Shown: piece after piece, positions 2,912-55,737 of the stretch | Position numbering within the stretch: the first letter of the stretch is position 1 | How the letters are laid out: the number at the start of each line of letters is the position of its first letter | IMG/VR virus record: IMGVR_UViG_3300034023_001061 | From: an uncultured virus (IMG/VR IMGVR_UViG_3300034023_001061) | Lineage: Duplodnaviria > Heunggongvirae > Uroviricota > Caudoviricetes | Reading direction: 5' to 3' (one strand) | DNA length: 64,000 nucleotides | Notes under the pieces: model-generated | Seen by the model: only the letters and a program-made list of their open reading frames with translations | Databases searched by the model: none | What the model was told of the DNA's origin: nothing | Translations under genes and position numbers: made by a program

Positions 2912-3139
2912 TCACGCCGCGCAGCGATTGCCCTTGCGGGGGAACGACGGGCGCGGCGTCGCGGCGCACTCGCACCAGTCCGCTTGCAACCGGCGCCCGA
3001 GCGACGTGGCGGGCGTCGTGTGGTCGCAGCGGAGGTGCCCGCGCGTCCACTCGCCAGCGCCACGGAAACACTGCGGGAACACGGGGTGCGTGACGGAGGG
3101 GATTGAGACGAGGCCAGCGACGCAGTGGGTGGTGTTCAT
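2912..3139 (-). CDS. Small Cys-rich hypothetical protein
   Basis: ATG directly after a clear promoter motif copy. Confidence 0.5.
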   Translation of the reverse strand: MNTTHCVAGLVSIPSVTHPVFPQCFRGAGEWTRGHLRCDHTTPATSLGRRLQADWCECAATPRPSFPRKGNRCAA

Positions 3140-3192
3140 GGTGACCCTTCTACGTCGCCAGTTGCGGCGACCTTACGCTGCTCCGCCGATTT
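3140..3192 (-). promoter_or_regulatory. ECF-like promoter motif
   Basis: AAATCGG..GCGTAAGG-N16-CGTAGAAGGGTCACC-ATG. Confidence 0.7.
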
Positions 3193-3346: not shown

Positions 3347-3520
3347 ACCTCCCCGCCGCGAGCGACGGGGCTTCTCGTGTCGGCTTACGCCGACGCCGAA
3401 CTACTTGCAGGGGTTCCGCCTGAACTACGGGGTGGCGGTTGCCCGCCTCCTCGATACTTTCTCAAAGGGCGAACGAACACGATCGTGCTTGGCATCGGTT
3501 GGTTGGGCAACAGTTGCCCG
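3323..3520 (-). ncRNA. Putative omegaRNA of tnpB 1 (bounds approximate)
   Basis: Established position over tnpB 3' end and right end; guide would start AGGCAACCGTCCGCGC. Confidence 0.5.
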
Positions 3521-4653
3521 TTGAGACCGATGCCTCGAATGTTCGCGCACCCCACCACGTCACGCGGCGCCACCAACCCGCACTGCGGGTTCCGACACCG
3601 ATAGACCCTTCGGCACTTCTGCCGATTCACGCAAGCGGGACACGCTTGCGAACTGTACGCCTCGCAGACGCGCTCGACGCCAGCGAGTTTGTAGCCCAAC
3701 TGCGCGATGATCTTGCCGGTGCAAACCTGCGAGACTTGCTGCGCAGTGCGACGATTCATCTTCGCCGCAGCATCGTTGAACGGCTCGCCGACGAAGGCGT
3801 GCGCTCCGGGGAACGCACGCGCAACGGCGGCGGTCGCCTTGTGCGTGATGTCCTTGATCTTGCGCCTGCACTTCGCGAGCATCTTGTGCTTGCGCCGCGC
3901 GAGTTTCTTCTGTCGACGACTCCCTTGCTTGCAGCGCGACGAGCGCGAATCGATGCTCGCCAGTTGCTTGTTCCGGTACTGGACGATGGCCTTCGCCTCG
4001 CGACCCGATACGACGATCGCGGTCTTGCCGTCGGTCGCCGCGATGAGCGAGTTCACGCCGAGGTCGCAACCGATCACGGTGCCAGACTCGATCACTGACT
4101 CGACGGGCAACGCGCAGACGATGCGAACGACGCAGAAGCCGAGCGTCACCTCCATCAACCGCCCCGACAACGCGAACGGCAGACGAATGCGGAGCGTTTG
4201 GTTGACCCCTCTCCCACTACCACCGCCGTTGTTGAGGCGCAGAAATCCATCGCGTATCAGCGCGCCTTGGTTCGAGTACGTGACGTCTCGGTAGCGCGGC
4301 GTTTTGCGCGGGTACTCGGCGGTCACTTCTTCGCCGCGCGCCCGCTGCGCCTTGCGCTTCGCGGTAGTCCACGCGATGTTCTCGCAGAACTGCGCCACGG
4401 TTCGCTGGACGGACTGCGCGGACATCGCGGGGAACTTGCCCTTCGCCCACGCCAACCAGCGCGAGAGCGACGGCCACTTCCACCGCAACCGTCGGATGCG
4501 GGCGTGAAGGCGTACCATCGCGTTCCACAACGCGGCGTTCGCGAGGCGAGACGCCGTGAACGTGGCCCACTGAACCGACGATCGCGGTCGCCACGCAACC
4601 TCGACAACGCGATGCGTCGTCTCCGGGGCGTTGGTGACTGCTTTCTCCTGCAC
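3385..4653 (-). CDS. tnpB: RNA-guided endonuclease TnpB
   Basis: IGCDLG, VCEAYSSQACPAC, CRNPQC, RDVVGCANI; start chosen 7 nt after a -10 box. Confidence 0.92.
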   Translation of the reverse strand: MQEKAVTNAPETTHRVVEVAWRPRSSVQWATFTASRLANAALWNAMVRLHARIRRLRWKWPSLSRWLAWAKGKFPAMSAQSVQRTVAQFCENIAWTTAKRKAQRARGEEVTAEYPRKTPRYRDVTYSNQGALIRDGFLRLNNGGGSGRGVNQTLRIRLPFALSGRLMEVTLGFCVVRIVCALPVESVIESGTVIGCDLGVNSLIAATDGKTAIVVSGREAKAIVQYRNKQLASIDSRSSRCKQGSRRQKKLARRKHKMLAKCRRKIKDITHKATAAVARAFPGAHAFVGEPFNDAAAKMNRRTAQQVSQVCTGKIIAQLGYKLAGVERVCEAYSSQACPACVNRQKCRRVYRCRNPQCGLVAPRDVVGCANIRGIGLNGQLLPNQPMPSTIVFVRPLRKYRGGGQPPPRSSGGTPASSSASA

Positions 4654-4660
4654 GGGCACC

Positions 4661-4689
4661 ACCGTACTCACGGACTCCGTACGTGTCAA
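4661..4689 (-). promoter_or_regulatory. Sigma70-like promoter of tnpB 1
   Basis: TTGACA-N17-TACGGT-N7-GTG. Confidence 0.6.
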
Positions 4690-7962: not shown

Positions 7963-8558
7963 GTCGCCTCCGCGATGCTCGGGATCGCGAGCCCCGACTG
8001 CGTGAACTGGAACACGAACCGCTGGCCGTCCGAACCGTAGCGGTTCTTCGCCACCGTCACGACGACGTTTGCGCGGTTCTCTTCGCGAGAGAGCATGAGC
8101 AGCACGTCGGCGGTGTGCTCCGGCGCGACCCACTGAGGGTACGTCAACTCCGTGAACGACGGCGCGATGATCGTCGCGGCCTTGAAGGCGGGTGCCTTCG
8201 CGACGCGCAGAACGTCATCGAAGCGGTGCGGCGGGAGGCGCGGACGATCGAGCACCACGAGGTCTTCGTCGCTCGCGAGGCAACGATCGAACGGGTCGCC
8301 ATCGGACGAGAAGCCTTCGACGCGAAGTCTCAACAAGGCTTCGTTGCTCATCCCCCCGAAGCGCCGACGCATGGTGAAGTCCGTCTCGTCGTCCGTAGCG
8401 TACGCCACCGACGCGCCGTTCTTCGCCGCGTAGCGCACCATCGCCACGAGCAGCGTCGTTCGCCCGACGCCTGGAGCGCCGATCACCACCGTCACGTTCC
8501 GCGGTCGCATCACGATATCAACCAACTTCGCGATCCCGCACTTCTTGTCGATCATCAT
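7959..8558 (-). CDS. Degenerate DnaB-like RecA-fold ATPase
   Basis: GAPGVGRTT, LVVLD, ADVLLML, VAKNRYG. Confidence 0.75.
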   Translation of the reverse strand: MMIDKKCGIAKLVDIVMRPRNVTVVIGAPGVGRTTLLVAMVRYAAKNGASVAYATDDETDFTMRRRFGGMSNEALLRLRVEGFSSDGDPFDRCLASDEDLVVLDRPRLPPHRFDDVLRVAKAPAFKAATIIAPSFTELTYPQWVAPEHTADVLLMLSREENRANVVVTVAKNRYGSDGQRFVFQFTQSGLAIPSIAEAT

Positions 8559-8676
8559 TGGAGTTCTCCTTGTGTTGCCAGCGTGGATGCTCCGCGATTC
8601 AGCGCGCAGAGGAAACGCCTTCTCGACTTGAACGAGCATCCACGCGACCTTCGGCGAGAACCGGCGTCGGGTTCAC
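8556..8676 (+). mobile_element. 121-bp non-autonomous IS200/IS605-type mini-element
   Basis: First ~63 nt align with left end of tnpB element 2; preceded by TCAT, ends in TCAC. Confidence 0.65.
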
Positions 8677-12532: not shown

Positions 12533-13785
12533 TTGAGGGCTCCGAAGAGTGGGCCGAAGTCGCTCGACTTCGCGACGATCGGAGACACTGCGTCCGTGTC
12601 GAAAACTGCCATGCGTCGCTTCTGAATCTCAGGGTACGTCGGGTTGAGTTCGGCCATGATTGCGCGGCGATTGTTCTGGAGAGCGACGAGTGCCGTAGTG
12701 CCAGCGCCGCCGAACGGGTCGAGAATCACGTCGTCACGTTCGGAGCCCGCGAGGATGCAGCGCCGTGCGAGTTCGGGAGGCATCGTGGCGAAGTGCGCTT
12801 CACTGCACGGCTCCGATGCAATATCCCATACATCGCGGGCGTTTCGCTTTCCGTCGGTCACGCGCAGGCGCGGGTTGTTGTTGAATGCGCACCCCTTTGC
12901 GTCTCGCCTTTCTGACTCTGCGTTTGTGGCTTGAACGTTTCTGCCGTTTACCGATTTCGCATCTGACTTTCGCTCGTCCGTCCGACGCGCGCTCGACACG
13001 TTTGTTGAGATCGACTCAGTGCCGGTAACGGCCTTCTCTCTTATCGCCTCGTCGTCGTAGAAGTAGGCGTCTCTCTTCGACATCAGAAACACGAACTCGT
13101 GGGCGCGAGTAGGTCGGTCTGTCACCGATTCTGGCATCGGCGATCTCTTATGCCACACGATATCGCTCCGCAGATACCACCCGTCCGCTTGCAGCGCGAA
13201 CGCAGCGAGCCACGGCACGCCGATAAGATCCTTCGACTTCGGCCCCTCGGGAACCTTCGACGATTGCCCCTGAACGAGCGTTGACCACTTGGTCGGCGAC
13301 ACTTGGTACGATCGGTTCGCCGCGTACGAGTCGCCGAGGTTCAACCACAACGTCCCGTCGTCCGCGAGCACGCGCCATACTTCGCGGAACACCTCCAGAA
13401 GATGCGCGACGAAAACGTACGGCGACTCTTCGTTGCCGAGCGACGACCACGTTCCGTCGGACCACTGCGATTGCGCGCCGACGGTTCCGTCCCACCGCAC
13501 CGAACCGTCCTTCTGGACGTTCTCCGCGGCACCGCCCGACGAGTAGCGGCATCGATCGGACCCGTACCTCGCGTTCCACTCGATCGCCGACTCCACCGAC
13601 CACTGTGTCGCTTCTTCTTGAGTCGAAAACGTCTTGCGCGCCGAGTATTCTCGGAGCCCGAAATACGGAGGCGACGTGACGCAGCACCGCGCGCTGCCGG
13701 TCTTCATCTCGCGCAAGCGATCCATCACGTCGCCGATGGCGCACGCCCACTTGCGTTTCCCGTCGATCACTTCGGCGATGCTCAC
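12529..13785 (-). CDS. N4-cytosine/N6-adenine DNA methyltransferase (beta class)
   Basis: TSPPY...HFATMP...LDPFGGAGTT. Confidence 0.93.
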   Translation of the reverse strand: MSIAEVIDGKRKWACAIGDVMDRLREMKTGSARCCVTSPPYFGLREYSARKTFSTQEEATQWSVESAIEWNARYGSDRCRYSSGGAAENVQKDGSVRWDGTVGAQSQWSDGTWSSLGNEESPYVFVAHLLEVFREVWRVLADDGTLWLNLGDSYAANRSYQVSPTKWSTLVQGQSSKVPEGPKSKDLIGVPWLAAFALQADGWYLRSDIVWHKRSPMPESVTDRPTRAHEFVFLMSKRDAYFYDDEAIREKAVTGTESISTNVSSARRTDERKSDAKSVNGRNVQATNAESERRDAKGCAFNNNPRLRVTDGKRNARDVWDIASEPCSEAHFATMPPELARRCILAGSERDDVILDPFGGAGTTALVALQNNRRAIMAELNPTYPEIQKRRMAVFDTDAVSPIVAKSSDFGPLFGALK

Positions 13786-14072
13786 TCCGGCACCTCGATC
13801 CCCATCAGTCGCGCCGCCTCCATCACGACCGGGATCGCATCGTCGTACGTGAGCGTGTGCCACGGAACCTCACACGCGAGACGCCAGTTGCGAACGTTAC
13901 GCAGCGCGAGAGACCACGCGTCATGATAGCGGCGCTCCTCGCTCGCCATCGCGAGCACGCCCTGCGCGAACGCGACGAACGTCGGCGCGTCGACCGCGTA
14001 CATCGCCGGAACCTGCGCCATCGCTCGCAGGATCTTGCCCGCCCGCACGGCGGCATCGTCGGTGCGCATCAC
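13782..14072 (-). CDS. Hypothetical protein
   Basis: Overlap chain. Confidence 0.55.
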   Translation of the reverse strand: MMRTDDAAVRAGKILRAMAQVPAMYAVDAPTFVAFAQGVLAMASEERRYHDAWSLALRNVRNWRLACEVPWHTLTYDDAIPVVMEAARLMGIEVPE

Positions 14073-14482
14073 CGCGCTCCCGTGGTCACGTACCGATAGA
14101 GCGATTCCATATCGATGCCCTTCATCCACGCGAGCACCACCACGCTCCCGTCAAGTTCATCCGCGGCGAGTTCGCGTTCGTCGGTCGGAACCATCACCAA
14201 AACCTCTACCTTGCCGTGCTTGAACGAGTGCACGCCGTAGCGCGTCGCACGGCGCATCATCGTGTACGCCTCGTCGCTGGTGAGCGGTTGCCCGCCGACG
14301 CCGTTGCGTCCCTCGGCGTTGCACGACGTGAGTCGCGCCACGAACTCGCGCTCCTCGCGTTGCGCGACTTCGCGGGTCTGCGACGCCTCGAACGCGAACC
14401 AGAAGCCATCGTGCGACCACCCTTCAGGCGGCGAGTCGACGGTCTCACGAACGATTGAACAGAGACGATTGCCGGGGGTCAC
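14069..14482 (-). CDS. Hypothetical protein
   Basis: Overlap chain. Confidence 0.6.
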   Translation of the reverse strand: MTPGNRLCSIVRETVDSPPEGWSHDGFWFAFEASQTREVAQREEREFVARLTSCNAEGRNGVGGQPLTSDEAYTMMRRATRYGVHSFKHGKVEVLVMVPTDERELAADELDGSVVVLAWMKGIDMESLYRYVTTGAR

Positions 14483-14763
14483 GACTGCACCTTCTTCTTG
14501 CTCCGCTCGTACGACGCGAGCGCGTGTACGTTATTCACCGAAAGGCCCGTTCGCGCGGCTACCTCTTGCACCGGAACCGACTGCGCCAGCAACGCACGCG
14601 CCGCTGCACGTTGCGACGACTGCGCGGGGCCGCGCGGTCGGATCTTGACACCCGCCGCGATCAACTCCGCACGCACCTTCGTGAGCGAGCGTCGCGCGTT
14701 CGCTTCGATCCACTTGAGACCCTTGCCTCGCTCGTACGCCTCCACGATCTGCGCGGGGTTCAT
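14479..14763 (-). CDS. Tandem HTH protein
   Basis: IVEAYERGKGLKWI; VQEVAARTGLSVNNV. Confidence 0.7.
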   Translation of the reverse strand: MNPAQIVEAYERGKGLKWIEANARRSLTKVRAELIAAGVKIRPRGPAQSSQRAAARALLAQSVPVQEVAARTGLSVNNVHALASYERSKKKVQS

Positions 14764-14785
14764 CGCGGGTTCCGTCGCCCGCTCC

Positions 14786-15196
14786 CTACGCGCCATCGGC
14801 GGCGCGAGCCTTCGCGAGAACCTCACGCCCTGCGTCGGTGATCGTGACCGTCGCGGGCGAGCCCTTGCCCTTCGCCTCGACGAGCGTGATGTACCCGTTC
14901 CTCGCGAGCCACCGCAACGTCTGGCGGTTGAAGTCCTGCTTGTGGTCGTACGATGACGACGTGACGTTCACCGTGCCCGCCGTTTCGAGACGCGTGAGGT
15001 GCTGGCGCTGCGGCTTCGTGAGGATCGCAGGCACGACCTTCTTATTCCACACGCCAGCGTCGGTCGCGACACGCGCCACGGTCTCCGCGCTCACACTGAA
15101 ACGCTTCGCGATCTGGTCCGTCGGCACGCGGTCCTTGACGGCATCGACGATGCGGCGTCGCTCCGCGTCGGTGAGAAGTTCGTACGCACTCTTCAT
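14786..15196 (-). CDS. HTH + winged-helix protein
   Basis: DQIAKRFSVSAETVARV; LARNGYI...ITDAGREVL. Confidence 0.75.
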   Translation of the reverse strand: MKSAYELLTDAERRRIVDAVKDRVPTDQIAKRFSVSAETVARVATDAGVWNKKVVPAILTKPQRQHLTRLETAGTVNVTSSSYDHKQDFNRQTLRWLARNGYITLVEAKGKGSPATVTITDAGREVLAKARAADGA

Positions 15197-16233: not shown

Positions 16234-16514
16234 GGCCACGCCTCGCACTCGTGGTGACGATTCGTGCACTGGCACAACACGATTGCGTCGGGCAAGGACT
16301 CGTGCTCGCAACGATCCACGCGGTGCCAGCACGGCGGGCCGAAGGGCGAGTTGCCGCGGCACCACCGCCCGCCGACGGCGCGACGATACCAGCGGTACGC
16401 CGCCAAATCCTGCGGCGGCATGAACGGTTCCGCGACGCGGGCTAGCGCGCGGAACCACCACGGGGCACGCGACGGCGGCGTCACGGGAGCGGTGCGGTAG
16501 GGGTGGCTCACCAT
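16230..16514 (-). CDS. PYR-motif Trp/Cys-rich small protein
   Basis: MVSHPYRTA...WYRRAVGGRW. Confidence 0.65.
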   Translation of the reverse strand: MVSHPYRTAPVTPPSRAPWWFRALARVAEPFMPPQDLAAYRWYRRAVGGRWCRGNSPFGPPCWHRVDRCEHESLPDAIVLCQCTNRHHECEAWP

Positions 16515-16574
16515 CGTAGTTCTCCGAGTATTGCCAGCGTGGATGCTCCGCCGTTCACGGCGGAGAGGAATCAC
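16512..16574 (+). mobile_element. 63-bp single-hairpin IS200/IS605-type mini-element
   Basis: TCAC|CATCGTAGTTCTCC...GATG-CTCCGCCG-TTCA-CGGCGGAG-AGGAA-TCAC. Confidence 0.7.
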
Positions 16575-16872: not shown

Positions 16873-17661
16873 TCACACGGCGACGCCGCGGGCCGACAAT
16901 CGCGTGCGGAGCGTACGCAGTGCGCCGGACTCGATCTGCCGCACACGCTCCTTCGTTAGCCCGTACGCATCGCCGCACTCCTCCAGGGTTTGCTCCTCGC
17001 CGACGAAACCGAAGCGCCGGTTGAGCACGTCTCGCTCGCGCGCTGTGAGCGTCGCGACGATCGACCGGGCGAAGGCGTTGTGCTCGCACGTCGCCACGAT
17101 CTGCTCGGGAGTCGGCACCTCGCGATCGTCGGTGTAGTCGCTCGGGATCGACGGCGCCACGTCGGGCCAGAGTTCTTCCGGCGTTGTGCCGAGCGCGGCG
17201 GCGACGTTAAGGGCGATGTTGCGCCACCGACCGTCGCTGCGACGCAACGGGGAGTAGCGCCCGGTTTCCAGCGAGGCGAGGAGCGATTGCGTGCAGCCGT
17301 ACGTCGCGGCGGAGAGTTTCGCGCCCGTGAGGCCAGCGGCGACGCGAGCCGCCGTGAGCGCCGAGCGCGTGGTGTCGACGGCGCGGAGGGCCGCGATTTC
17401 GTGGTTGCGCCGTTGCGTCTCGGACCAACCGAACGTCACGTCGCCGTTCGGAGCGCGCAGCGTTCGGATGGCGTCGAGTGCGTCGCCCGTCACGCCGTAC
17501 GCCGCCGCCATCGAGTCGAGGCGCTTGCGACTCGGGTGCCACGATCCGCATTCGATGTTGTAAACGGCGGACTGCGAGACGCCGAGAAGCGACGACGCGT
17601 TGCGAACGTCGATCCCCGCGGCGATGCGGGCCTTCTTGAGCGCGATGCCGAGGGGTGTCAC
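16873..17661 (-). CDS. XRE-HTH x2 + sigma70 region-4 protein
   Basis: LKKARIAAG..LGVSQSAVYNIE; LTARERDVLNRRFG..TLEECGDAYGLTKERVRQIE. Confidence 0.85.
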   Translation of the reverse strand: MTPLGIALKKARIAAGIDVRNASSLLGVSQSAVYNIECGSWHPSRKRLDSMAAAYGVTGDALDAIRTLRAPNGDVTFGWSETQRRNHEIAALRAVDTTRSALTAARVAAGLTGAKLSAATYGCTQSLLASLETGRYSPLRRSDGRWRNIALNVAAALGTTPEELWPDVAPSIPSDYTDDREVPTPEQIVATCEHNAFARSIVATLTARERDVLNRRFGFVGEEQTLEECGDAYGLTKERVRQIESGALRTLRTRLSARGVAV

Positions 17662-18467
17662 GATTGCCTCTCGTCGAGTTCGGCGTTGCTGTAGTTGCGC
17701 CAGAATCGCGTGCGCAGCGTGCGAAGAGCACGCACCTCGATTTGCCTCACTCGTTCGGGAAAACAGCCGAACTCATCGCCACACTGCGCGAACGTTTTCG
17801 GTTCCCCGGTGAACCCGAAGCGGAGGTGAATAACGCGCTGTTGCTTCAGCGGGAGCGTCAGGAGGAACAGTCGCACCGTTCGGTCGCGGTCGCGTGCCAG
17901 CGCGATATCCTCCGGCGTCGGAATCGTTTGATCGTCGGCGTGGTCGATCGGGGCCAGTGGCGCCACGTCGGGCCAGAGTTCTTCGGGTGGCACGCAGAGC
18001 GCGGCGGCGATGCTTCGTGCCACGGGGCGCCACTGCCCGTCACGGCGTCGGATCGGTGACTCGCGACCCGTCTCCAGCGCGGCAAGAAGCGACGGGGTGC
18101 ATCCGCGAGCAATCACTGCGAGTTTCGTTACCGTGAGGCCCGCGGCGACGCGAGCGGCGGTGAGTTCCGATCGGCGGGTGTCTGCGGCCCGAAGGTGCGC
18201 GAGTTCCATGTTGCGTCGATGCTCCGCACTCCACTTCGCGTGCGGTTGGGCGTTTATTACGCGCAGGGCATGGAGTGTAGCACGTTCCTCGGTTGTCACG
18301 CCGTACGCCGTCGCCATCGCGTTGAGCATCCTGCGTGTCGGGCAACGCTGGTCGAGTTCGATACCGCAGAGGCTCGACTGCGACACGCCGAGTTCCTGCG
18401 CTGCCCTGCGCACACCCATTCTCGCCGCGACGCGCGCGGCCTTGAGCGCGATGCCGAGCGGTGTCAT
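17658..18467 (-). CDS. XRE-HTH x2 + sigma70 region-4 protein (paralog)
   Basis: Same architecture; LPLKQQRVIHLRFG..ERVRQIE. Confidence 0.85.
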   Translation of the reverse strand: MTPLGIALKAARVAARMGVRRAAQELGVSQSSLCGIELDQRCPTRRMLNAMATAYGVTTEERATLHALRVINAQPHAKWSAEHRRNMELAHLRAADTRRSELTAARVAAGLTVTKLAVIARGCTPSLLAALETGRESPIRRRDGQWRPVARSIAAALCVPPEELWPDVAPLAPIDHADDQTIPTPEDIALARDRDRTVRLFLLTLPLKQQRVIHLRFGFTGEPKTFAQCGDEFGCFPERVRQIEVRALRTLRTRFWRNYSNAELDERQS

Positions 18468-23952: not shown

Positions 23953-24321
23953 TTACTTCGCTCCTACGCAAGCGGGCGCCTTCGCAGGAACGTTCGCTCG
24001 CGTGTACCATCGGCGAGGGTGCTCGATCGCGGCGTCAAGGTCGGCGGAGGCGAGCGCGCTCGCGAGGAGCACACGGCGGTTCACGTCCGGCAGGTTGCAG
24101 ACCGGGCCACCGTCTTCTTCGGCCACTTGAACTCGCCACGCGCTGCGGTGGGTTACCGTCCCGAAGCGATCTGTCTCGTCCCACTCCCCGCCATAGACGC
24201 GCCCGAAGAGAAAACCCTCCTGCGCGAGCAGTCCCACGAGGACGACCCACGCGGCGTCCGCGGTCGCGAAACCGCCGTATACGTGTTCCCAGCACCATTG
24301 CGTGTCGTCGATGGCTTGCAT
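23953..24321 (-). CDS. Hypothetical protein
   Basis: ATG after GCGTAAGA-N16-CGTATGAG. Confidence 0.65.
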   Translation of the reverse strand: MQAIDDTQWCWEHVYGGFATADAAWVVLVGLLAQEGFLFGRVYGGEWDETDRFGTVTHRSAWRVQVAEEDGGPVCNLPDVNRRVLLASALASADLDAAIEHPRRWYTRANVPAKAPACVGAK

Positions 24322-24412
24322 GGTGACTCATACGCCTCGTCGGAGGCGATTCTTACGCCTGTTCTGGCGATGCCGTTGCGTTTCGCCGGTTCGTCTGGCA
24401 GCATCGACGATC

Positions 24413-25861: not shown

Positions 25862-26356
25862 TCAGCCCTTCTTCTCGATGCGCTCGATGGCCTTCTTCGC
25901 CTTCGCGAAGTCCGCGGGCTTCGGCGGCATGTACCAGTCGCGCATCCCCTTCGCGGAGAAGTGCGCCTCCGTGCGGTGCCTGAGTTCGTAGTAGAGGCGC
26001 TGGTCGAACGAGCGCAGCCCGCGCTCCTCGCAGATCGTCGCCTCGTACCGTTTCCACTCCGCGGCGAGCGCGTGCAGCCCCGCGAGTTTCGCCTGCGCCT
26101 TCGCGAGCGAAATCGCGTGGGCCTTCGCGTCCTTGATCGCAGCGCCGAGGTGCGCAGCCTCGCGGGTGGCGCACGTATCCCCCATGATGGCGCGCGTACC
26201 GTCGCTGAGTTCGACGTGCGCGTGAACCTCGTGCTGCGCGCCGCAGCGGGCGCACTCGTTCATCACGCCGCTACCGGGGATCGGGAACGCGCCCTGCGGT
26301 CCGACGGTCCAGTTGCGGGTGTCGATCACGGTGATGACGCGGGTGATGGTTCGCAT
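25862..26356 (-). CDS. Zinc-finger hypothetical protein
   Basis: CARCG...MGDTCA; promoter motif upstream. Confidence 0.7.
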   Translation of the reverse strand: MRTITRVITVIDTRNWTVGPQGAFPIPGSGVMNECARCGAQHEVHAHVELSDGTRAIMGDTCATREAAHLGAAIKDAKAHAISLAKAQAKLAGLHALAAEWKRYEATICEERGLRSFDQRLYYELRHRTEAHFSAKGMRDWYMPPKPADFAKAKKAIERIEKKG

Positions 26357-26400
26357 GGTGTCCCTTGTACGGTGCAAGTCGGGCGGACCTTACGCCGCCC
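26357..26400 (-). promoter_or_regulatory. ECF-like promoter motif
   Basis: GCGTAAGG-N16-CGTACAAGGGACACC-ATG. Confidence 0.75.
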
Positions 26401-26402
26401 GG

Positions 26403-26609
26403 TCACTTCGTCGCGAAACGCTTCTCCGCAGCGGCGAGTTCCGCGCCCGTGAGGGGCACGCACTCCGACTCGAACAAGTAGTGACCGTAGCCGAACTCGT
26501 CGCCGAGCCACACGCGACCTTGTGATCCGCGGTTGCCGGTGCGGCCAATATCGCCCGACGGAGCGTGGCGGACGAGGGTGCCGGTGGGGATGCTGGTGTT
26601 GTCGTTCAT
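26403..26609 (-). CDS. Small SH3/KOW-like beta protein
   Basis: IPTGTLVRHAPSGDIGR..RVW. Confidence 0.65.
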   Translation of the reverse strand: MNDNTSIPTGTLVRHAPSGDIGRTGNRGSQGRVWLGDEFGYGHYLFESECVPLTGAELAAAEKRFATK

Positions 26610-26665
26610 GGTGTCCCTTGTACGCCTGCCGTCGCGGCAACCTTACGCCGCACTCGCCGATTCTT
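26610..26665 (-). promoter_or_regulatory. ECF-like promoter motif
   Basis: AATCGG..GCGTAAGG-N16-CGTACAAGGGACACC-ATG. Confidence 0.75.
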
Positions 26666-26964: not shown

Positions 26965-27153
26965 TCACTTCGCCACCGCGGCTTCGTACGCGGCGCGGGC
27001 GGCGCACGCCTTCTGCCACGCGAGGCGCTCACGGTGTCGCGCGAGGCCCACCGTGCGCGAGCCAGACACTTCGGCGCGGTATGCCGCGCGGGCGGCGCTC
27101 TCGTGGGCGACGGTGGCGGTTGCGTAGGCGGCGCGGAGGGTCTCGGTGTTCAT
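26965..27153 (-). CDS. Small Ala-rich protein
   Basis: ATG after promoter motif. Confidence 0.6.
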   Translation of the reverse strand: MNTETLRAAYATATVAHESAARAAYRAEVSGSRTVGLARHRERLAWQKACAARAAYEAAVAK

Positions 27154-27293
27154 AGTGCCCCTTCTACGCCGCCAGCCCGACGAACCTTACGGCGCCACGT
27201 CGCATTCTCTCGCACCGCCTGTTTTGCGGCGCTTCGGAGAAACCACCGGGCCGACGAAAGAACTGGCGCCGCCGATGCGTAGAAGGGCTCGCC
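27154..27293. promoter_or_regulatory. Divergent promoter pair at the main strand switch
   Basis: Minus: CCGTAAGG-N16-CGTAGAAG; plus: CGAAAG-N17-CGTAGAAG. Confidence 0.7.
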
Positions 27294-39405: not shown

Positions 39406-39815
39406 GCCGTCTGCGCCTTGAACTCGCGGGCTGCGTCGGCGTCGTGCCACACGATCGACGGCACGGCGATGTCGTGCATGGCGCGGGCGATGCTCGTCTC
39501 GGCGGCGTAGTGCGAGACGATTGCGTTGACCGCCTTGCGCATGGCGGCGTCGCGCGAGTAGCGATCCTCCTCGAAGCGGCGCGAGCCGAGCGCCATCGCC
39601 TTCTCGCGACCGGGCATCGTCTGGATCACGGTCGTCCAGTACGGTTCGGCGGGCGCCATTTCCTTCGCCCACGCGGAGCGGCCATCGTAGCCGGGGAGGC
39701 GACGGACGGCCCACACCTCGCGGCCATCGACGGTGCAGACGCGGTGGGCGGCGCCGCCGTCGGCGGACACGTAGGAGGGGAACGCGGGAGCGGGAACGGT
39801 TTCGGTGGGGTTCAT
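39402..39815 (-). CDS. Hypothetical protein
   Basis: ATG after promoter motif. Confidence 0.65.
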   Translation of the reverse strand: MNPTETVPAPAFPSYVSADGGAAHRVCTVDGREVWAVRRLPGYDGRSAWAKEMAPAEPYWTTVIQTMPGREKAMALGSRRFEEDRYSRDAAMRKAVNAIVSHYAAETSIARAMHDIAVPSIVWHDADAAREFKAQTA

Positions 39816-39911
39816 GCTCGCTTGTACGCCGACCGCGAGGCGATTCTTACGCGCCGCGGAGAAAATCGGAGGGAGCGTGAAGAGTCGGGGGAGGCGTCGC
39901 GTATTAGCACC
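39816..39911. promoter_or_regulatory. Divergent pair of ECF-like promoter motifs
   Basis: Minus: GCGTAAGA-N16-CGTACAAG; plus: GTGAAG-N17-CGTATTAG. Confidence 0.65.
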
Positions 39912-52195: not shown

Positions 52196-52903
52196 ATGGC
52201 GATGACCTACAAGAAACGTTCGCGGCGGGAGTACGAGGCCGACCTGATCGCGGATTGCCGCAAGGCGTTCGCGAAGCACACCATCGCCTCACGCGGCGAC
52301 GGGCGGTGGGTTCTGCGAGAACCGGGCACGAGCAACCTTCAATGCGAAATCGTCGCGCTGGCGTGGGGAACGTTGCTCGTGCACGGCGACTTCTCGCACT
52401 GCATCTGGACGTACTACAGCGGCGATGGCGGACCGGAGGCGCTGGTGCGCTGGATCGGGCGCCAGAGCGGTCTCGGTTACGTTTGCCAGAAGGCCATCAA
52501 GGGGCTCGAAGATCACCGGCTCGTCGAGGAGATCAACGGCGAGGTGCTCGCCCACGATCTGCAAGAGTACCTCGACGAGTGGCGCGAGCAGAACGCGCTT
52601 GACGACGAAGACAACGACCCGAGCGAAGATGAACAGCGCGAACGGGAGCGCATCACGGAAGCGATCGAAGATGCCATCAAGGAGGCGAGCGGCGCGTCGG
52701 ACGACGGCGACGGGCACCGCATCGTGCACGCGCTGGTCGACGACGACGTGATCGACTCCGAGACTGCGGGGTCGCTCGGCGAGGTGCCGACGCGTCGCGT
52801 GGTGTGCGCGTGGCAGGCCGTCGTGCGGTTGCGGGAACTTCTCGACGAAGAATCGGCGGCGCGCGTGAAGAACGGCGAGGCGGAGAGCGTACAAGGCGCA
52901 TGA
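52196..52903 (+). CDS. Phage hypothetical protein
   Basis: LREPGTS..GTLLVHGD; acidic C-terminal half. Confidence 0.7.
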   Translation: MAMTYKKRSRREYEADLIADCRKAFAKHTIASRGDGRWVLREPGTSNLQCEIVALAWGTLLVHGDFSHCIWTYYSGDGGPEALVRWIGRQSGLGYVCQKAIKGLEDHRLVEEINGEVLAHDLQEYLDEWREQNALDDEDNDPSEDEQRERERITEAIEDAIKEASGASDDGDGHRIVHALVDDDVIDSETAGSLGEVPTRRVVCAWQAVVRLRELLDEESAARVKNGEAESVQGA

Positions 52904-53061
52904 AGGAAATGTTCCTGGCCTTTATCGCGTTCTGCGCGATTGCTGTTACCGTCACCATCAGCATTTCGCCCAAGCCCGCGCCGTGTGACGGCCAACTCGT
53001 GACGGGCGCCATCGGCACCATCGAGTTCCGGTACTGCGTGCACCCCGTGGTGGCGCAGTGA
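52900..53061 (+). CDS. Small membrane/secreted protein
   Basis: MKEMFLAFIAFCAIAVTVTISI. Confidence 0.55.
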   Translation: MKEMFLAFIAFCAIAVTVTISISPKPAPCDGQLVTGAIGTIEFRYCVHPVVAQ

Positions 53062-53309
53062 CGCTCGCCGACGCAGTGCTCCGCTCCCTTCTCGCGCTCG
53101 ACCGACTTGCGGCGCCCGGTCCCTTCGAGCGCGGTGCAACCGTTCGCTTGATCGACCGCACCGACGTGTACGCGGTCGGCGACGTGGGCGAGGTGATCGC
53201 GTCCGATCGCGAGTACACGTCCGTCCGCATCGGCGGGTGCCAGCAGACCGTGCGAACGTCGCAACTGCGCGGGTCGCGGGCCGAAGTGATGTCGGAGGGG
53301 CTGCGGTAA
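53058..53309 (+). CDS. Small KOW/SH3-like protein; stop codon supplied by element 2
   Basis: FERGATVRL..GDVGEVI. Confidence 0.6.
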   Translation: MTLADAVLRSLLALDRLAAPGPFERGATVRLIDRTDVYAVGDVGEVIASDREYTSVRIGGCQQTVRTSQLRGSRAEVMSEGLR

Positions 53310-53480
53310 ACAATCCCCGCGCTAAAGCGCAGGGCTTTCGGTGCGTCGCTTGCGTGACGGCACCTTCGCGGCTCCACTCGCACGGACACCCCCACCAGTC
53401 TTCGGGGTGCGCGCTACGGGCTTTTCGTGGGCTGCATACGGGGGGTTTACGTGACCCTTGCGGGTCGCCACCGGAGGATC
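53286..53480 (-). ncRNA. Putative omegaRNA of tnpB 2 (bounds approximate)
   Basis: Established position; guide would start CGCAGCCCCTCCGACATC. Confidence 0.55.
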
Positions 53481-54863
53481 ACCGTTTTGCTGGGTGGTGA
53501 TCCAGTTCGCCGCGTCGAGCGCGGCCTTGCGAATGTTCTTCGCGGCGTTCACGTCCGCGTTCTCCGCGTGCCCGCACTTGCGGCACTGAAACCGCGACTG
53601 CGAGCGACGATTGTTCCGCGCCGTGTGCCCACAACACGAGCATCGCTGCGACGTGTACGCGGGATCGACGTAGACGATCGTGATCCCGTACTCGCCCGCC
53701 TTGTACTCCAGCATCTCCTGCTGGCGGCGGAACGTCCACGAGTGGATGCGACGCTTCGTCTTGCGATTGAAACGTCGGCATCGAGTACGGATGTTTGTCA
53801 GATCCTCAAGCACGAGAATCGTGCCTGCGGGCAGACTGCGGAGAAGTTGAGTCGTGAGACGATGGTCGGCATCAACGCGAAACCGAGACCACTTCCGCGA
53901 GCGCCGCTTCGCGCGGCGTTTTGCAGACTTGGTGCCTTTGCGCTGGAGAGACTTGCCAGTGTTGAAGTAGCGCCTTTCGACGGAGTGCCAGTTAGGGTCG
54001 CCGAGTTTGCGACCGTCGGAGAGAGCGAAGGGTGCGACGACGCCACGATCGCCGCCGATCACGTTCGCCGTGTCGGGGTCGAAGGTTTCGGGTGTCACGC
54101 CCGCGGGTGCGGGGCGAGAAAACGAGATGGAGATCCAGAAGCGTCCATCGCGATCCTCGCTCACACGCGCAGCGCCGAGTTTCCATCCGCTCCCCTCGCG
54201 GAAGTAGCGGCGCAGTTGCTTGTGACCGACGATGCGGCCTTCGATGCGCTTGCCGAGCGTCGTGAGCGTCACGTCCTTGCCGTTCGGTCGCACGCGCATC
54301 GTGCGAGCGTCATAGGGAATCGGCACGTTCGCGTAGAGCGGCTTCGAGACGGCGTTGCCGAGTTTGGCGAGCGATCGGAGTGCGCGGACGGCGCCGAAGG
54401 CGAGCGTCTGCACGTTGCACACGAACTGCGACGGCAAGCGCGGGAACCGCGCACGCAGCGTCGTGTAGACCGCGTGGTGGAACGTTTCGTAGTTCCTGAA
54501 CCGATGCGGGTAGGCGATATCCACCGCGTCCTGCATCGCGGCGGTGATGAGCGGCGCCACGTCGCGCATGGCACGCTTGCCGTCGTCGGTGAGCATCAGC
54601 GGGCAACGGACCGTGCGCATCATTGCGGGCGCTCGCTTGCCGCGCGGGGACACAACGGCGTCCGCCGTCGTTTCCTGCGCTGCATCGGTGAATGCGCCGT
54701 CCATCGACTGCGTATGTAGCACGCTACACGGAGCAAGTTCACGGGAACTGCTGACGTGTGACATAGACTGTCCGGCACGTCGCTTGCTCGTCTGCTCGGG
54801 CGTTTCCTCTCCGCGCTCAAGCGCGGAGTACCCACGCTTGCATCACACTGGAGAACACCAAGA
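53306..54863 (-). mobile_element. IS200/IS605-family (IS1341-like) tnpB element 2
   Basis: Right end AAAG-hairpin-TTAC; left-end hairpin CTCCGCGC-TTGA-GCGCGGAG; target TCAT. Confidence 0.85.
53322..54704 (-). CDS. tnpB: RNA-guided endonuclease TnpB (start uncertain)
   Basis: IGGDRG, LVLEDL, YTSQRCSCCG, CRKCG, NADVNAAKNI. Confidence 0.95.
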   Translation of the reverse strand: MDGAFTDAAQETTADAVVSPRGKRAPAMMRTVRCPLMLTDDGKRAMRDVAPLITAAMQDAVDIAYPHRFRNYETFHHAVYTTLRARFPRLPSQFVCNVQTLAFGAVRALRSLAKLGNAVSKPLYANVPIPYDARTMRVRPNGKDVTLTTLGKRIEGRIVGHKQLRRYFREGSGWKLGAARVSEDRDGRFWISISFSRPAPAGVTPETFDPDTANVIGGDRGVVAPFALSDGRKLGDPNWHSVERRYFNTGKSLQRKGTKSAKRRAKRRSRKWSRFRVDADHRLTTQLLRSLPAGTILVLEDLTNIRTRCRRFNRKTKRRIHSWTFRRQQEMLEYKAGEYGITIVYVDPAYTSQRCSCCGHTARNNRRSQSRFQCRKCGHAENADVNAAKNIRKAALDAANWITTQQNGDPPVATRKGHVNPPYAAHEKPVARTPKTGGGVRASGAAKVPSRKRRTESPAL

Positions 54864-55208
54864 ATGAACGAAGGGCCGTACCGCGCCAGCGATATCGTCA
54901 ACGCCCCACCGCCGAACGGCATCGTCGCGCTGATCTGGCGCTGGATTCTCCTGCGCCGCGCCGAACGGCTCGAAGCGGAGGAGCGCAAGGTGCCGCTCGC
55001 GCTGGTAGCGCCGGTCCCGAAGTCGGAGAAGCGCGTCACGATCCGCATGGTGCGGTCCGATGGGTTCGCGCCGTACAAGGTTGAGCGCGTAGTGGTTTCG
55101 TCGTGCCCCGGCAAGAGCGCGCAACGGCCATCGGACGTCTCGCACCACTTCGTTTTCGACTACTGGCTGTGCACCGACAAGCACTGCTGCTGCGAGGTTC
55201 AAGAATGA
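54864..55208 (+). CDS. PYR-motif Cys-rich protein
   Basis: MNEGPYRA..LIWRWIL; RBS from element left end. Confidence 0.65.
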   Translation: MNEGPYRASDIVNAPPPNGIVALIWRWILLRRAERLEAEERKVPLALVAPVPKSEKRVTIRMVRSDGFAPYKVERVVVSSCPGKSAQRPSDVSHHFVFDYWLCTDKHCCCEVQE

Positions 55209-55456
55209 GTAACGGAGTCAACGAAGGCACGGTTCTCGTCAACGCGAAGAAGAACGGCAAGCGGTTCGGCCAACTGGAGGGCGGAACGTCCGTCGCGTGG
55301 CTCGTGTGCGATGGCGCGAACTGCAACCGATACCGCGTCCTTGCCGACGCGGGCGACACGGAGGCGCTGATTCTCGCCGCCATCGAAGAGGGGTGGGAGT
55401 GCAACGATTCCATCGACTTCTGCTACTCGTGTGTCGCGAGGATGCAGGAGCGATGA
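55205..55456 (+). CDS. Zinc-binding small protein
   Basis: CDGANC...GW..DFCYSC. Confidence 0.6.
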   Translation: MSNGVNEGTVLVNAKKNGKRFGQLEGGTSVAWLVCDGANCNRYRVLADAGDTEALILAAIEEGWECNDSIDFCYSCVARMQER

Positions 55457-55737
55457 AGCACACGGTCACGATCGGGTCGCGAACGTTCGACATCACGCTC
55501 AAGGTTCACCCCGGTTGGGGCGGCAACCGTGAGTGCCCGCCCGAGCCGCCCACCGTGGACGTGCTGGCGATTCACGAGGGCGGGCGCGAGGTAGACGCCG
55601 ACGAGTTCGATGCTCACCTCGCAGCGTCCGTGCTCGACGTCGGAGCGTGGTGGGCGCAACTGGAGGACGAGGCCGATCTGGCGGACCGAGAAGCCGCAGC
55701 GGCGGCGATGGAGAAAGCGGGTTTCTGCGATGGGTGA
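55453..55737 (+). CDS. Hypothetical protein
   Basis: Overlap chain. Confidence 0.6.
   Translation: MKHTVTIGSRTFDITLKVHPGWGGNRECPPEPPTVDVLAIHEGGREVDADEFDAHLAASVLDVGAWWAQLEDEADLADREAAAAAMEKAGFCDG

Follow-up and report, generated by a model that had tools for sequence, protein, structure and literature searches.

A TnpB-only element at a stop/start junction of a phage genome, with ends that read as a stop codon and a putative ribosome-binding site

We analysed a stretch of 64,000 nucleotides from an uncultured virus (IMG/VR record IMGVR_UViG_3300034023_001061; the whole stretch is called the window below), in which a TnpB element of the IS200/IS605 type lies between two phage genes. The window is phage-like, tightly packed and 67% GC. 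Our own self-trained gene caller predicted 122 genes, and 50 of the 111 same-strand neighbour pairs overlapped by exactly 4 nucleotides (nt), in agreement with the overlap style described in the initial annotation of this DNA. Matches in PHROGs included a DnaB-like helicase, a helicase loader, a thymidine kinase, a DNA methyltransferase, a RecE/RecT pair and sigma-like regulators. Beyond about 39.8 kb, tnpB is the only gene that is not on the plus strand, and the element is antisense to this surrounding array. The locus contains the following features.

53058..53309, plus strand: upstream phage gene, 83 amino acids; its last base and its stop codon are contributed by the element.
53306..54863, minus strand: the whole element, 1558 bp, TnpB-only IS200/IS605 type (IS1341-like), with boundaries taken from relatives with differing flanks.
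53306..53355, minus strand: right end, consisting of AAAG, a hairpin at 53315-53334 and then 9 nt to the terminal TTAC.
53322..54629, minus strand: tnpB open reading frame (ORF), 435 amino acids from the Met that aligns with relatives; the ORF may instead start at 54704 or 54764 and be longer.
54790..54863, minus strand: left end, consisting of 35 nt, a hairpin at 54809-54828 and then a conserved AGAGGAAACGCC-type stretch.
54850..54856, plus strand: GGAGAAC, Shine-Dalgarno-like and facing outward, with 10 nt from GGAG to the ATG at 54864.
54864..55208, plus strand: downstream phage gene, 114 amino acids, whose ATG follows immediately after 54863.

Direct reading confirmed that the element occupies 53306-54863 within a stop/start junction, as the initial annotation had proposed. 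The upstream gene ends with CTG CGG TAA, in which the G at 53306 and the TAA at 53307-53309 correspond to the element's TTAC read on the other strand, so the Leu-Arg-stop ending described earlier is kept. Beyond this TAA the upstream frame is open for about 470 codons; the TAA therefore matters at this place, and a junction of this kind can tolerate an insertion only when the upstream gene keeps a stop. When the flanks were joined without the element, they read Leu, Arg (CGA) and a TGA that shares its A with the next ATG, with GGAGG 7 nt upstream, which bears out the earlier reading of a native ribosome-binding site (RBS). An ATGA overlap was thus probably present before the insertion, as deduced from the flanks alone.

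The flanking proteins were compared with their homologues as proteins, a comparison in which homologues from element-free genomes cannot be distinguished from others. Five of seven clusters of upstream-protein homologues are 83 amino acids long with a Gly-Leu/Met-Arg C-terminus. The aligned Met is the first residue in all six homologues of the downstream protein, ahead of an invariant Gly-Pro-Tyr-Arg; Met-Asn/Ser-x is kept in five of them, and the sixth (P0134) is without the two residues after Met. Neither flanking protein appears to be changed by the element.

The boundaries were defined with close relatives of the element (45-92% TnpB identity, plus L002 at 39%). At the right end, AAAG, a hairpin, 8-9 nt and TTAC recur in L082, L001, L083 and L084, and are then followed by unrelated flanks. 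At the left end, the alignment with L081, a metagenome contig whose TnpB is 91% identical to that of the window, has 89.6% identity over 1446 nt, reaches TTCAT and diverges beyond it. We accepted the boundaries because relatives share the ends but not the flanks. In nhmmer searches of the window, a right-end profile built from five elements matched only the element itself (E 2.6e-9), and a left-end profile matched it with E 6e-21.

Each end carries a GC-rich 8-bp hairpin, with AAAG directly 5ʹ of the right-end hairpin and 35 nt between the left cleavage site and the left hairpin. In the sequence as read, the two ends form no terminal inverted repeats, and the flanks, TTCAT on one side and CGCAG on the other, show that the target was not duplicated. 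The element lies 3ʹ of TTCAT, and because TTCAT is the reverse complement of the ATGAA that opens the downstream plus-strand gene, it is antisense to that gene. No Rfam family for an omega RNA was above threshold in 53200-55000, and a promoter/terminator scan gave 0 promoter-like sites and 2 terminator-like sites versus 1.8 expected. We concluded that this is a cleanly bounded TnpB element of the IS200/IS605 family; the earlier assignment to this type, with hairpin ends and no duplication, held on the basis of both hairpins, the unduplicated flanks and the Pfam match described below.

The TnpB protein matched Pfam PF07282 (Cas12f1-like TNB domain, zinc ribbon) with E 2.5e-25 and 20 PDB sequences, which are TnpB and Cas12f chains; PF01385 (OrfB_IS605) reached 26.7 bits, under its cut-off of 30.5. 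The RuvC-like D-E-D residues, D194, E275 and D359, are invariant across 30 relatives, and TnpB appears intact. Among the 120 predicted proteins of the window that were searched with PHROGs, no tnpA product (Y1/HUH transposase) was found, and only two proteins were TnpB-like. The element would therefore be non-autonomous, of the IS1341 type and reliant on TnpA in trans. The antisense frame of tnpB is 98% open, but we rejected this as a special trait: 5 of 15 other window genes of at least 250 amino acids are 100% open antisense, and such openness is ordinary because the window is 67% GC. The second TnpB-like gene, at 3385-4671 on the minus strand (428 amino acids; PHROG transposase families, E 3.5e-30), is unrelated. 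It is co-oriented with its neighbours, its start lies a few bases past the stop of the upstream gene, and downstream of it there is a hairpin and then a stretch ending in TTCAT.

The region 52600-55600 was found in 24 lake-water or freshwater metagenome runs from 2020-2024, 11 of which may be the source of the window DNA, and 18 of the 24 contained at least half of the sampled words. Contigs from four runs gave 31 pieces with 0 differences from the window, some of which bridge both junctions. The phage with the element is widespread and stable, because 24 runs contain this stretch and the contigs of the four runs compared show no difference.

L081 comes from a related phage: its positions 3-814 match window 13658-14469 at 87%, and 1332-2023 match 14504-15195 at 75%. 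In L081 the element lies at the start of a gene for 79 amino acids that has no counterpart at that position of the window, again after TTCAT and antisense. We considered the two phages as a pair of empty and occupied alleles and rejected this, since the L081 element adjoins the extra gene that the window lacks there. The comparison nevertheless suggests that at least two sites have been used by the element in this lineage of phages, each after TTCAT and antisense to the start of a small gene. The left end travels with tnpB, because the L081 copy sits at a different gene start, and the GGAGAAC stretch is part of the element and not of the target, because the homology that includes the left end stops at TTCAT.

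These results bear on whether the TnpB might be domesticated, a TldR-like regulator or a phage weapon that is no longer mobile. The lack of a tnpA in the window and the identity of the sequence across the four lake-water runs would fit such a role, but the catalytic D-E-D positions and both transposon ends are intact, and a related phage carries a sister copy at a different site. We consider domestication highly improbable.

The left-end profile identified exactly three copies in the window: the element, 8556-8626 (E 4.9e-22) and 16512-16574 (E 7.6e-19), with the next match at E 0.31. The initial annotation had described the latter two as further copies of the same geometry. The geometry was indeed the same; they are, however, left-end-like motifs without tnpB and not full copies, and we treated them as candidate relics, named c1 and c2.

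8556..8676, plus strand: relic c1, a left-end homologue without tnpB, between two minus-strand genes; its right boundary is putative.
16512..16574, plus strand: relic c2, 63 nt without tnpB, between two minus-strand genes; its right boundary is putative.

Both are antisense to their two neighbours, and in both GGAGAAC stands 7 nt before an element-borne ATG that is in frame with the native start. Their terminal TCAC makes the upstream gene read G and then TGA. With these boundaries, the flanks alone give an ATGA overlap at c1 and a GTGA overlap at c2. The c2 relic has a single hairpin, preceded by 34 nt and followed by 9 nt, which matches the spacing at the two ends (left and right, respectively) of the complete element, and we read it as a likely deletion between the similar left-end and right-end hairpins. 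Around the left-end hairpin of c1 (8581-8644) there is a 12-bp perfect inverted repeat with a DNA fold of -27.6 kcal/mol (z -1.5). The two relics are weaker evidence than the full element because their right boundaries are inferred.

The occurrence of the motif without tnpB at these two places, each just before a start codon, raised another explanation: the hairpin and GGAGAAC might be a native phage signal (a terminator, processing site or RBS) that tnpB merely adjoins, the true element being shorter. The phage does have another repeated upstream motif. However, L081 has the motif and tnpB as one continuous stretch at a different gene, with the homology ending at TTCAT, and L082, L001, L083, L084 and L086, more distant relatives in unrelated DNA, have CAT, 20-35 nt and a hairpin upstream of tnpB. 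We therefore gave a native phage signal very little credence.

Target, start codon and stop codon were then compared among the relatives. The pentamer before the left end is TTCAT in the window, L081, L082, L083 and L002, CTCAT in L001, GTCAT in L086 and GGCAT in L085. TCAT thus precedes seven of the eight close elements with left-flank sequence, and L084, at a contig start, shows only CAT. The earlier proposal of a TCAY target stands as far as TCAT is concerned, and GGCAT in L085 departs from it. The adjoining ATG opens an ORF of at least 50 amino acids in seven of the eight evaluable close relatives, a count that includes a shadow ORF in L083. The neighbouring gene in L001 opens with an ATG and a (GA)n run, after which the frame is broken ahead of a 2OG-Fe(II) oxygenase ORF (L001:2310-2381); a slip in assembly or a start subject to phase variation may account for this break, and the contig is from a metagenome-assembled genome labelled Saccharibacteria. 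Seven further elements (L093, L088, L095, L092, L097, L098 and L087) were inspected by eye and kept outside all tallies. In most of them CAT precedes the left end; the sites of L095 and L088 resemble genuine gene starts, and the L092 element is within an ORF of the same strand.

The right end is TTAC in all five close-clade elements for which it was read, and its TAA terminates a long upstream ORF in three of the five with a right flank: the window, L001 (at least 157 amino acids) and L084 (at least 233 amino acids). For distant relatives (30-40% TnpB identity), boundaries were read from pairs with differing flanks, and 92 of 104 distinct right flanks gave TTGAC, which makes no stop. A stop-making right end thus appears to be a trait of the close clade only.

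From these observations we propose the following course of events. A non-autonomous tnpB element would have inserted 3ʹ of TTCAT by single-strand 'peel and paste' transposition. Since TTCAT reads ATGAA on the other strand, the insertion point would lie one base ahead of a start codon there, and at a 4-nt ATGA overlap it would split the last sense codon of the upstream gene behind its second base. The terminal TTAC would then supply a third-position G (CGA to CGG, both Arg) plus an in-frame TAA, and the left end would offer GGAGAAC as a substitute RBS, 10 nt from the ATG. Both flanking proteins would stay unchanged, provided that phage transcription reads through the element, as we presume. TnpB homing would be guided by the 16-20 nt after the right end.

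We put the probability of this course of events at roughly 0.7, and regard most of the arrangement as a by-product of a published target preference and of the purging of harmful insertions from a phage genome that is compact. According to the accessible text of Kapitonov et al. 2016, the target N|ATGA of IS605B and ISC elements was verified with empty sites, including 12 Microcystis loci (PMC4810608). One insertion at a junction is unremarkable, because insertions elsewhere in a genome with almost no spacers would destroy genes and get lost; three such insertions are only suggestive. For tuning of the ends in the close clade there is modest evidence.

It is possible, though we hold it doubtful, that the element instead follows an adapted strategy, in which this IS605 sub-lineage became specialised for stop/start junctions, and the target, the right-end stop, the left-end RBS and in some copies the element's own ATG form a selected cassette that is translationally silent with no need of splicing. 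Such selection would fit the difference between the close clade and the 92 distant ends, which falls at the stop-creating base (TTAC versus TTGAC; TCAC in the relics), although of the three substitutions possible there two give a stop, so the difference counts for little. It would also fit the GGAGAAC heptamer, which is conserved in the three diverged left ends of the window (the element, c1 and c2) while the neighbouring bases vary. The c1, c2 and L081 copies open with CAT, giving in c1 and c2 the extra in-frame ATG 7 nt after GGAG, and all three window insertions lie at inferred 4-nt overlaps. Outward GGAG- or GAAAGG-like motifs were seen in the element, c1, c2, L082, L083, L086, L001 and L085, and were absent or weak in L081, L084 and L002; these left ends are related and hence not independent samples.

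Several observations weigh against a selected cassette and against a preference for gene junctions. The window contains 69 ATGAA sites, of which 17 coincide with predicted starts and 6 with 4-nt overlaps. L083 appears by eye to lie inside a membrane-protein gene on the strand of tnpB, and L082 and L002 occupy spacers between genes, positions that require no stop; in L002, whose neighbour is a DinB-family gene, the right end TGAC gives no stop and an RBS-like motif is missing. Among the distant relatives that also target TCAT there is no gene-start enrichment: the ATG opens an ORF of at least 50 amino acids in 5 of 13, versus 174 of 597 (29%) control TCAT sites. The ORF-start test is itself weak in GC-rich DNA, and controls in the flanks of close relatives gave about 50% long ORFs. 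GGAG or GAGG occurs at most 22 nt before the start of 55 of 121 phage genes, with a spacer of 4-7 nt in 35 of the 55; only 4 of the 55 have a 10-nt spacer like that of the element, which is longer than usual for this phage and worse than the 7 nt of the native GGAGG. L081, the nearest relative, has lost the GGAG at the corresponding position, and what preserves the pyrimidine-rich left-end tract may be binding of the transposase rather than a role as an RBS. Searches for an empty allele in IMG/VR, INPHARED and four lake-water runs gave none: there was no relative of the 236-amino-acid neighbouring protein in IMG/VR or INPHARED and none of the downstream-protein family in IMG/VR; contigs of four lake-water runs (X13, X17, X18 and X19) contained no joints that skip the element. 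Survivorship in phages would predict the same picture as selection of the ends.

In view of these points, the earlier idea that this family uses gene junctions as a safe harbour was borne out by the stops in the window, L001 and L084, and not by the intragenic L083, the spacers of L082 and L002 or the distant relatives. Likewise, the proposed new RBS does belong to the element; its function is plausible and partly conserved but not proven, GGAG being missing in L081. We can only tentatively suggest that the ends of a phage-borne IS605 sub-lineage act as a portable stop and RBS, sometimes with an ATG, so that insertions into ATGA or GTGA overlaps would be silent in translation with nothing spliced, and that deletion scars such as c1 and c2 (60-120 nt) remain working gene punctuation. 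The by-product of target preference and survivorship remains our preferred reading.

The other repeated upstream motif of the phage is about 50 nt long and stands before at least seven starts, at 2356-2406, 3128-3178, 24308-24358, 26345-26395, 26598-26648, 27142-27192 and 39802-39852. It consists of two CGTAAG/CGTACAAG-like words about 18 nt apart, followed by AAGGGACACC and ATG, and three copies fall between divergently oriented genes. It resembles a promoter combined with an RBS, specific to this phage and perhaps recognised by the sigma-like proteins at 16873-18467. These are two tandem paralogues of 262 and 269 amino acids with a helix-turn-helix regulator part and a C-terminus like sigma-factor region 4; a repeat finder gave DNA segments 72-77% identical and 806 nt apart. 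The repeat family D2/D9 was considered as a source of further relics and rejected, since it is a promoter-like direct-repeat motif that also occurs in three divergent intergenic regions.

If the ends do stand in for the lost stop and RBS, this would be a second way for IS605-type elements to reduce the cost to their carrier, besides the splicing of IStrons. It would help to explain the persistence of TnpB in packed phage genomes, where nearly any insertion should be lethal. For annotation, short spacers with a hairpin and an RBS between phage genes may be transposon scars, and a TCAT-type transposon-associated motif (TAM) indicates at which sites to look for such elements. In genome engineering, the arrangement could serve as a natural model for placing cargo in operons while avoiding polar effects.

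The initial annotation had asked for a literature check. In our full-text literature searches we did not find a description of IS605 insertions that preserve stop/start overlaps, although the N|ATGA target itself was already published in 2016. The accessible main text of Kapitonov et al. contains 0 occurrences of start or stop codons (PMC4810608), and such an insertion is not described in the accessible parts of a 2026 OMEGA review (PMC13565253) or of the Meers, Arc and IStron preprints (10.1101/2023.11.20.567912 for the last). The geometry is largely predictable from the published target preference, and the surprise to a specialist should be moderate.

The element shares with IS608 and ISDra2 the subterminal hairpins, the lack of inverted repeats and duplication, the RuvC-type TnpB and insertion 3ʹ of a target of 4-5 nt. 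In elements of that type, with the targets TTAC (IS608) and TTGAT (ISDra2), the target doubles as the TAM of TnpB, and homing by TnpB with omega RNA has reportedly been shown by Karvelis in 2021 and Meers in 2023. The window element differs from them in having no tnpA, in its TTCAT target, in a left cleavage 35 nt from the hairpin and in a TTAC that is a stop on the opposite strand. IS1341-type TnpB-only elements and palindrome-associated transposable elements (PATEs) are non-autonomous and have short derivatives without genes. Relics c1 and c2 would be such miniature derivatives, although c2 has a single hairpin, unlike a two-ended PATE.

The target of IS605B and ISC, as given in the accessible text, is the same as that of the window element, seen from the other strand; their hosts are cyanobacteria and proteobacteria, and the window element is in a phage (PMC4810608). 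IStrons, as described in the accessible part of their preprint, are IS605 or IS607 elements fused to group I introns and spliced at the RNA level, and canonical IS605 elements are said there to be without cost mitigation (10.1101/2023.11.20.567912). Like IStrons, the window element would be a transposon that limits the harm to the locus it interrupts. Unlike in IStrons, nothing is spliced, and it is the ends of the element that would replace the lost stop codon and ribosome-binding site.

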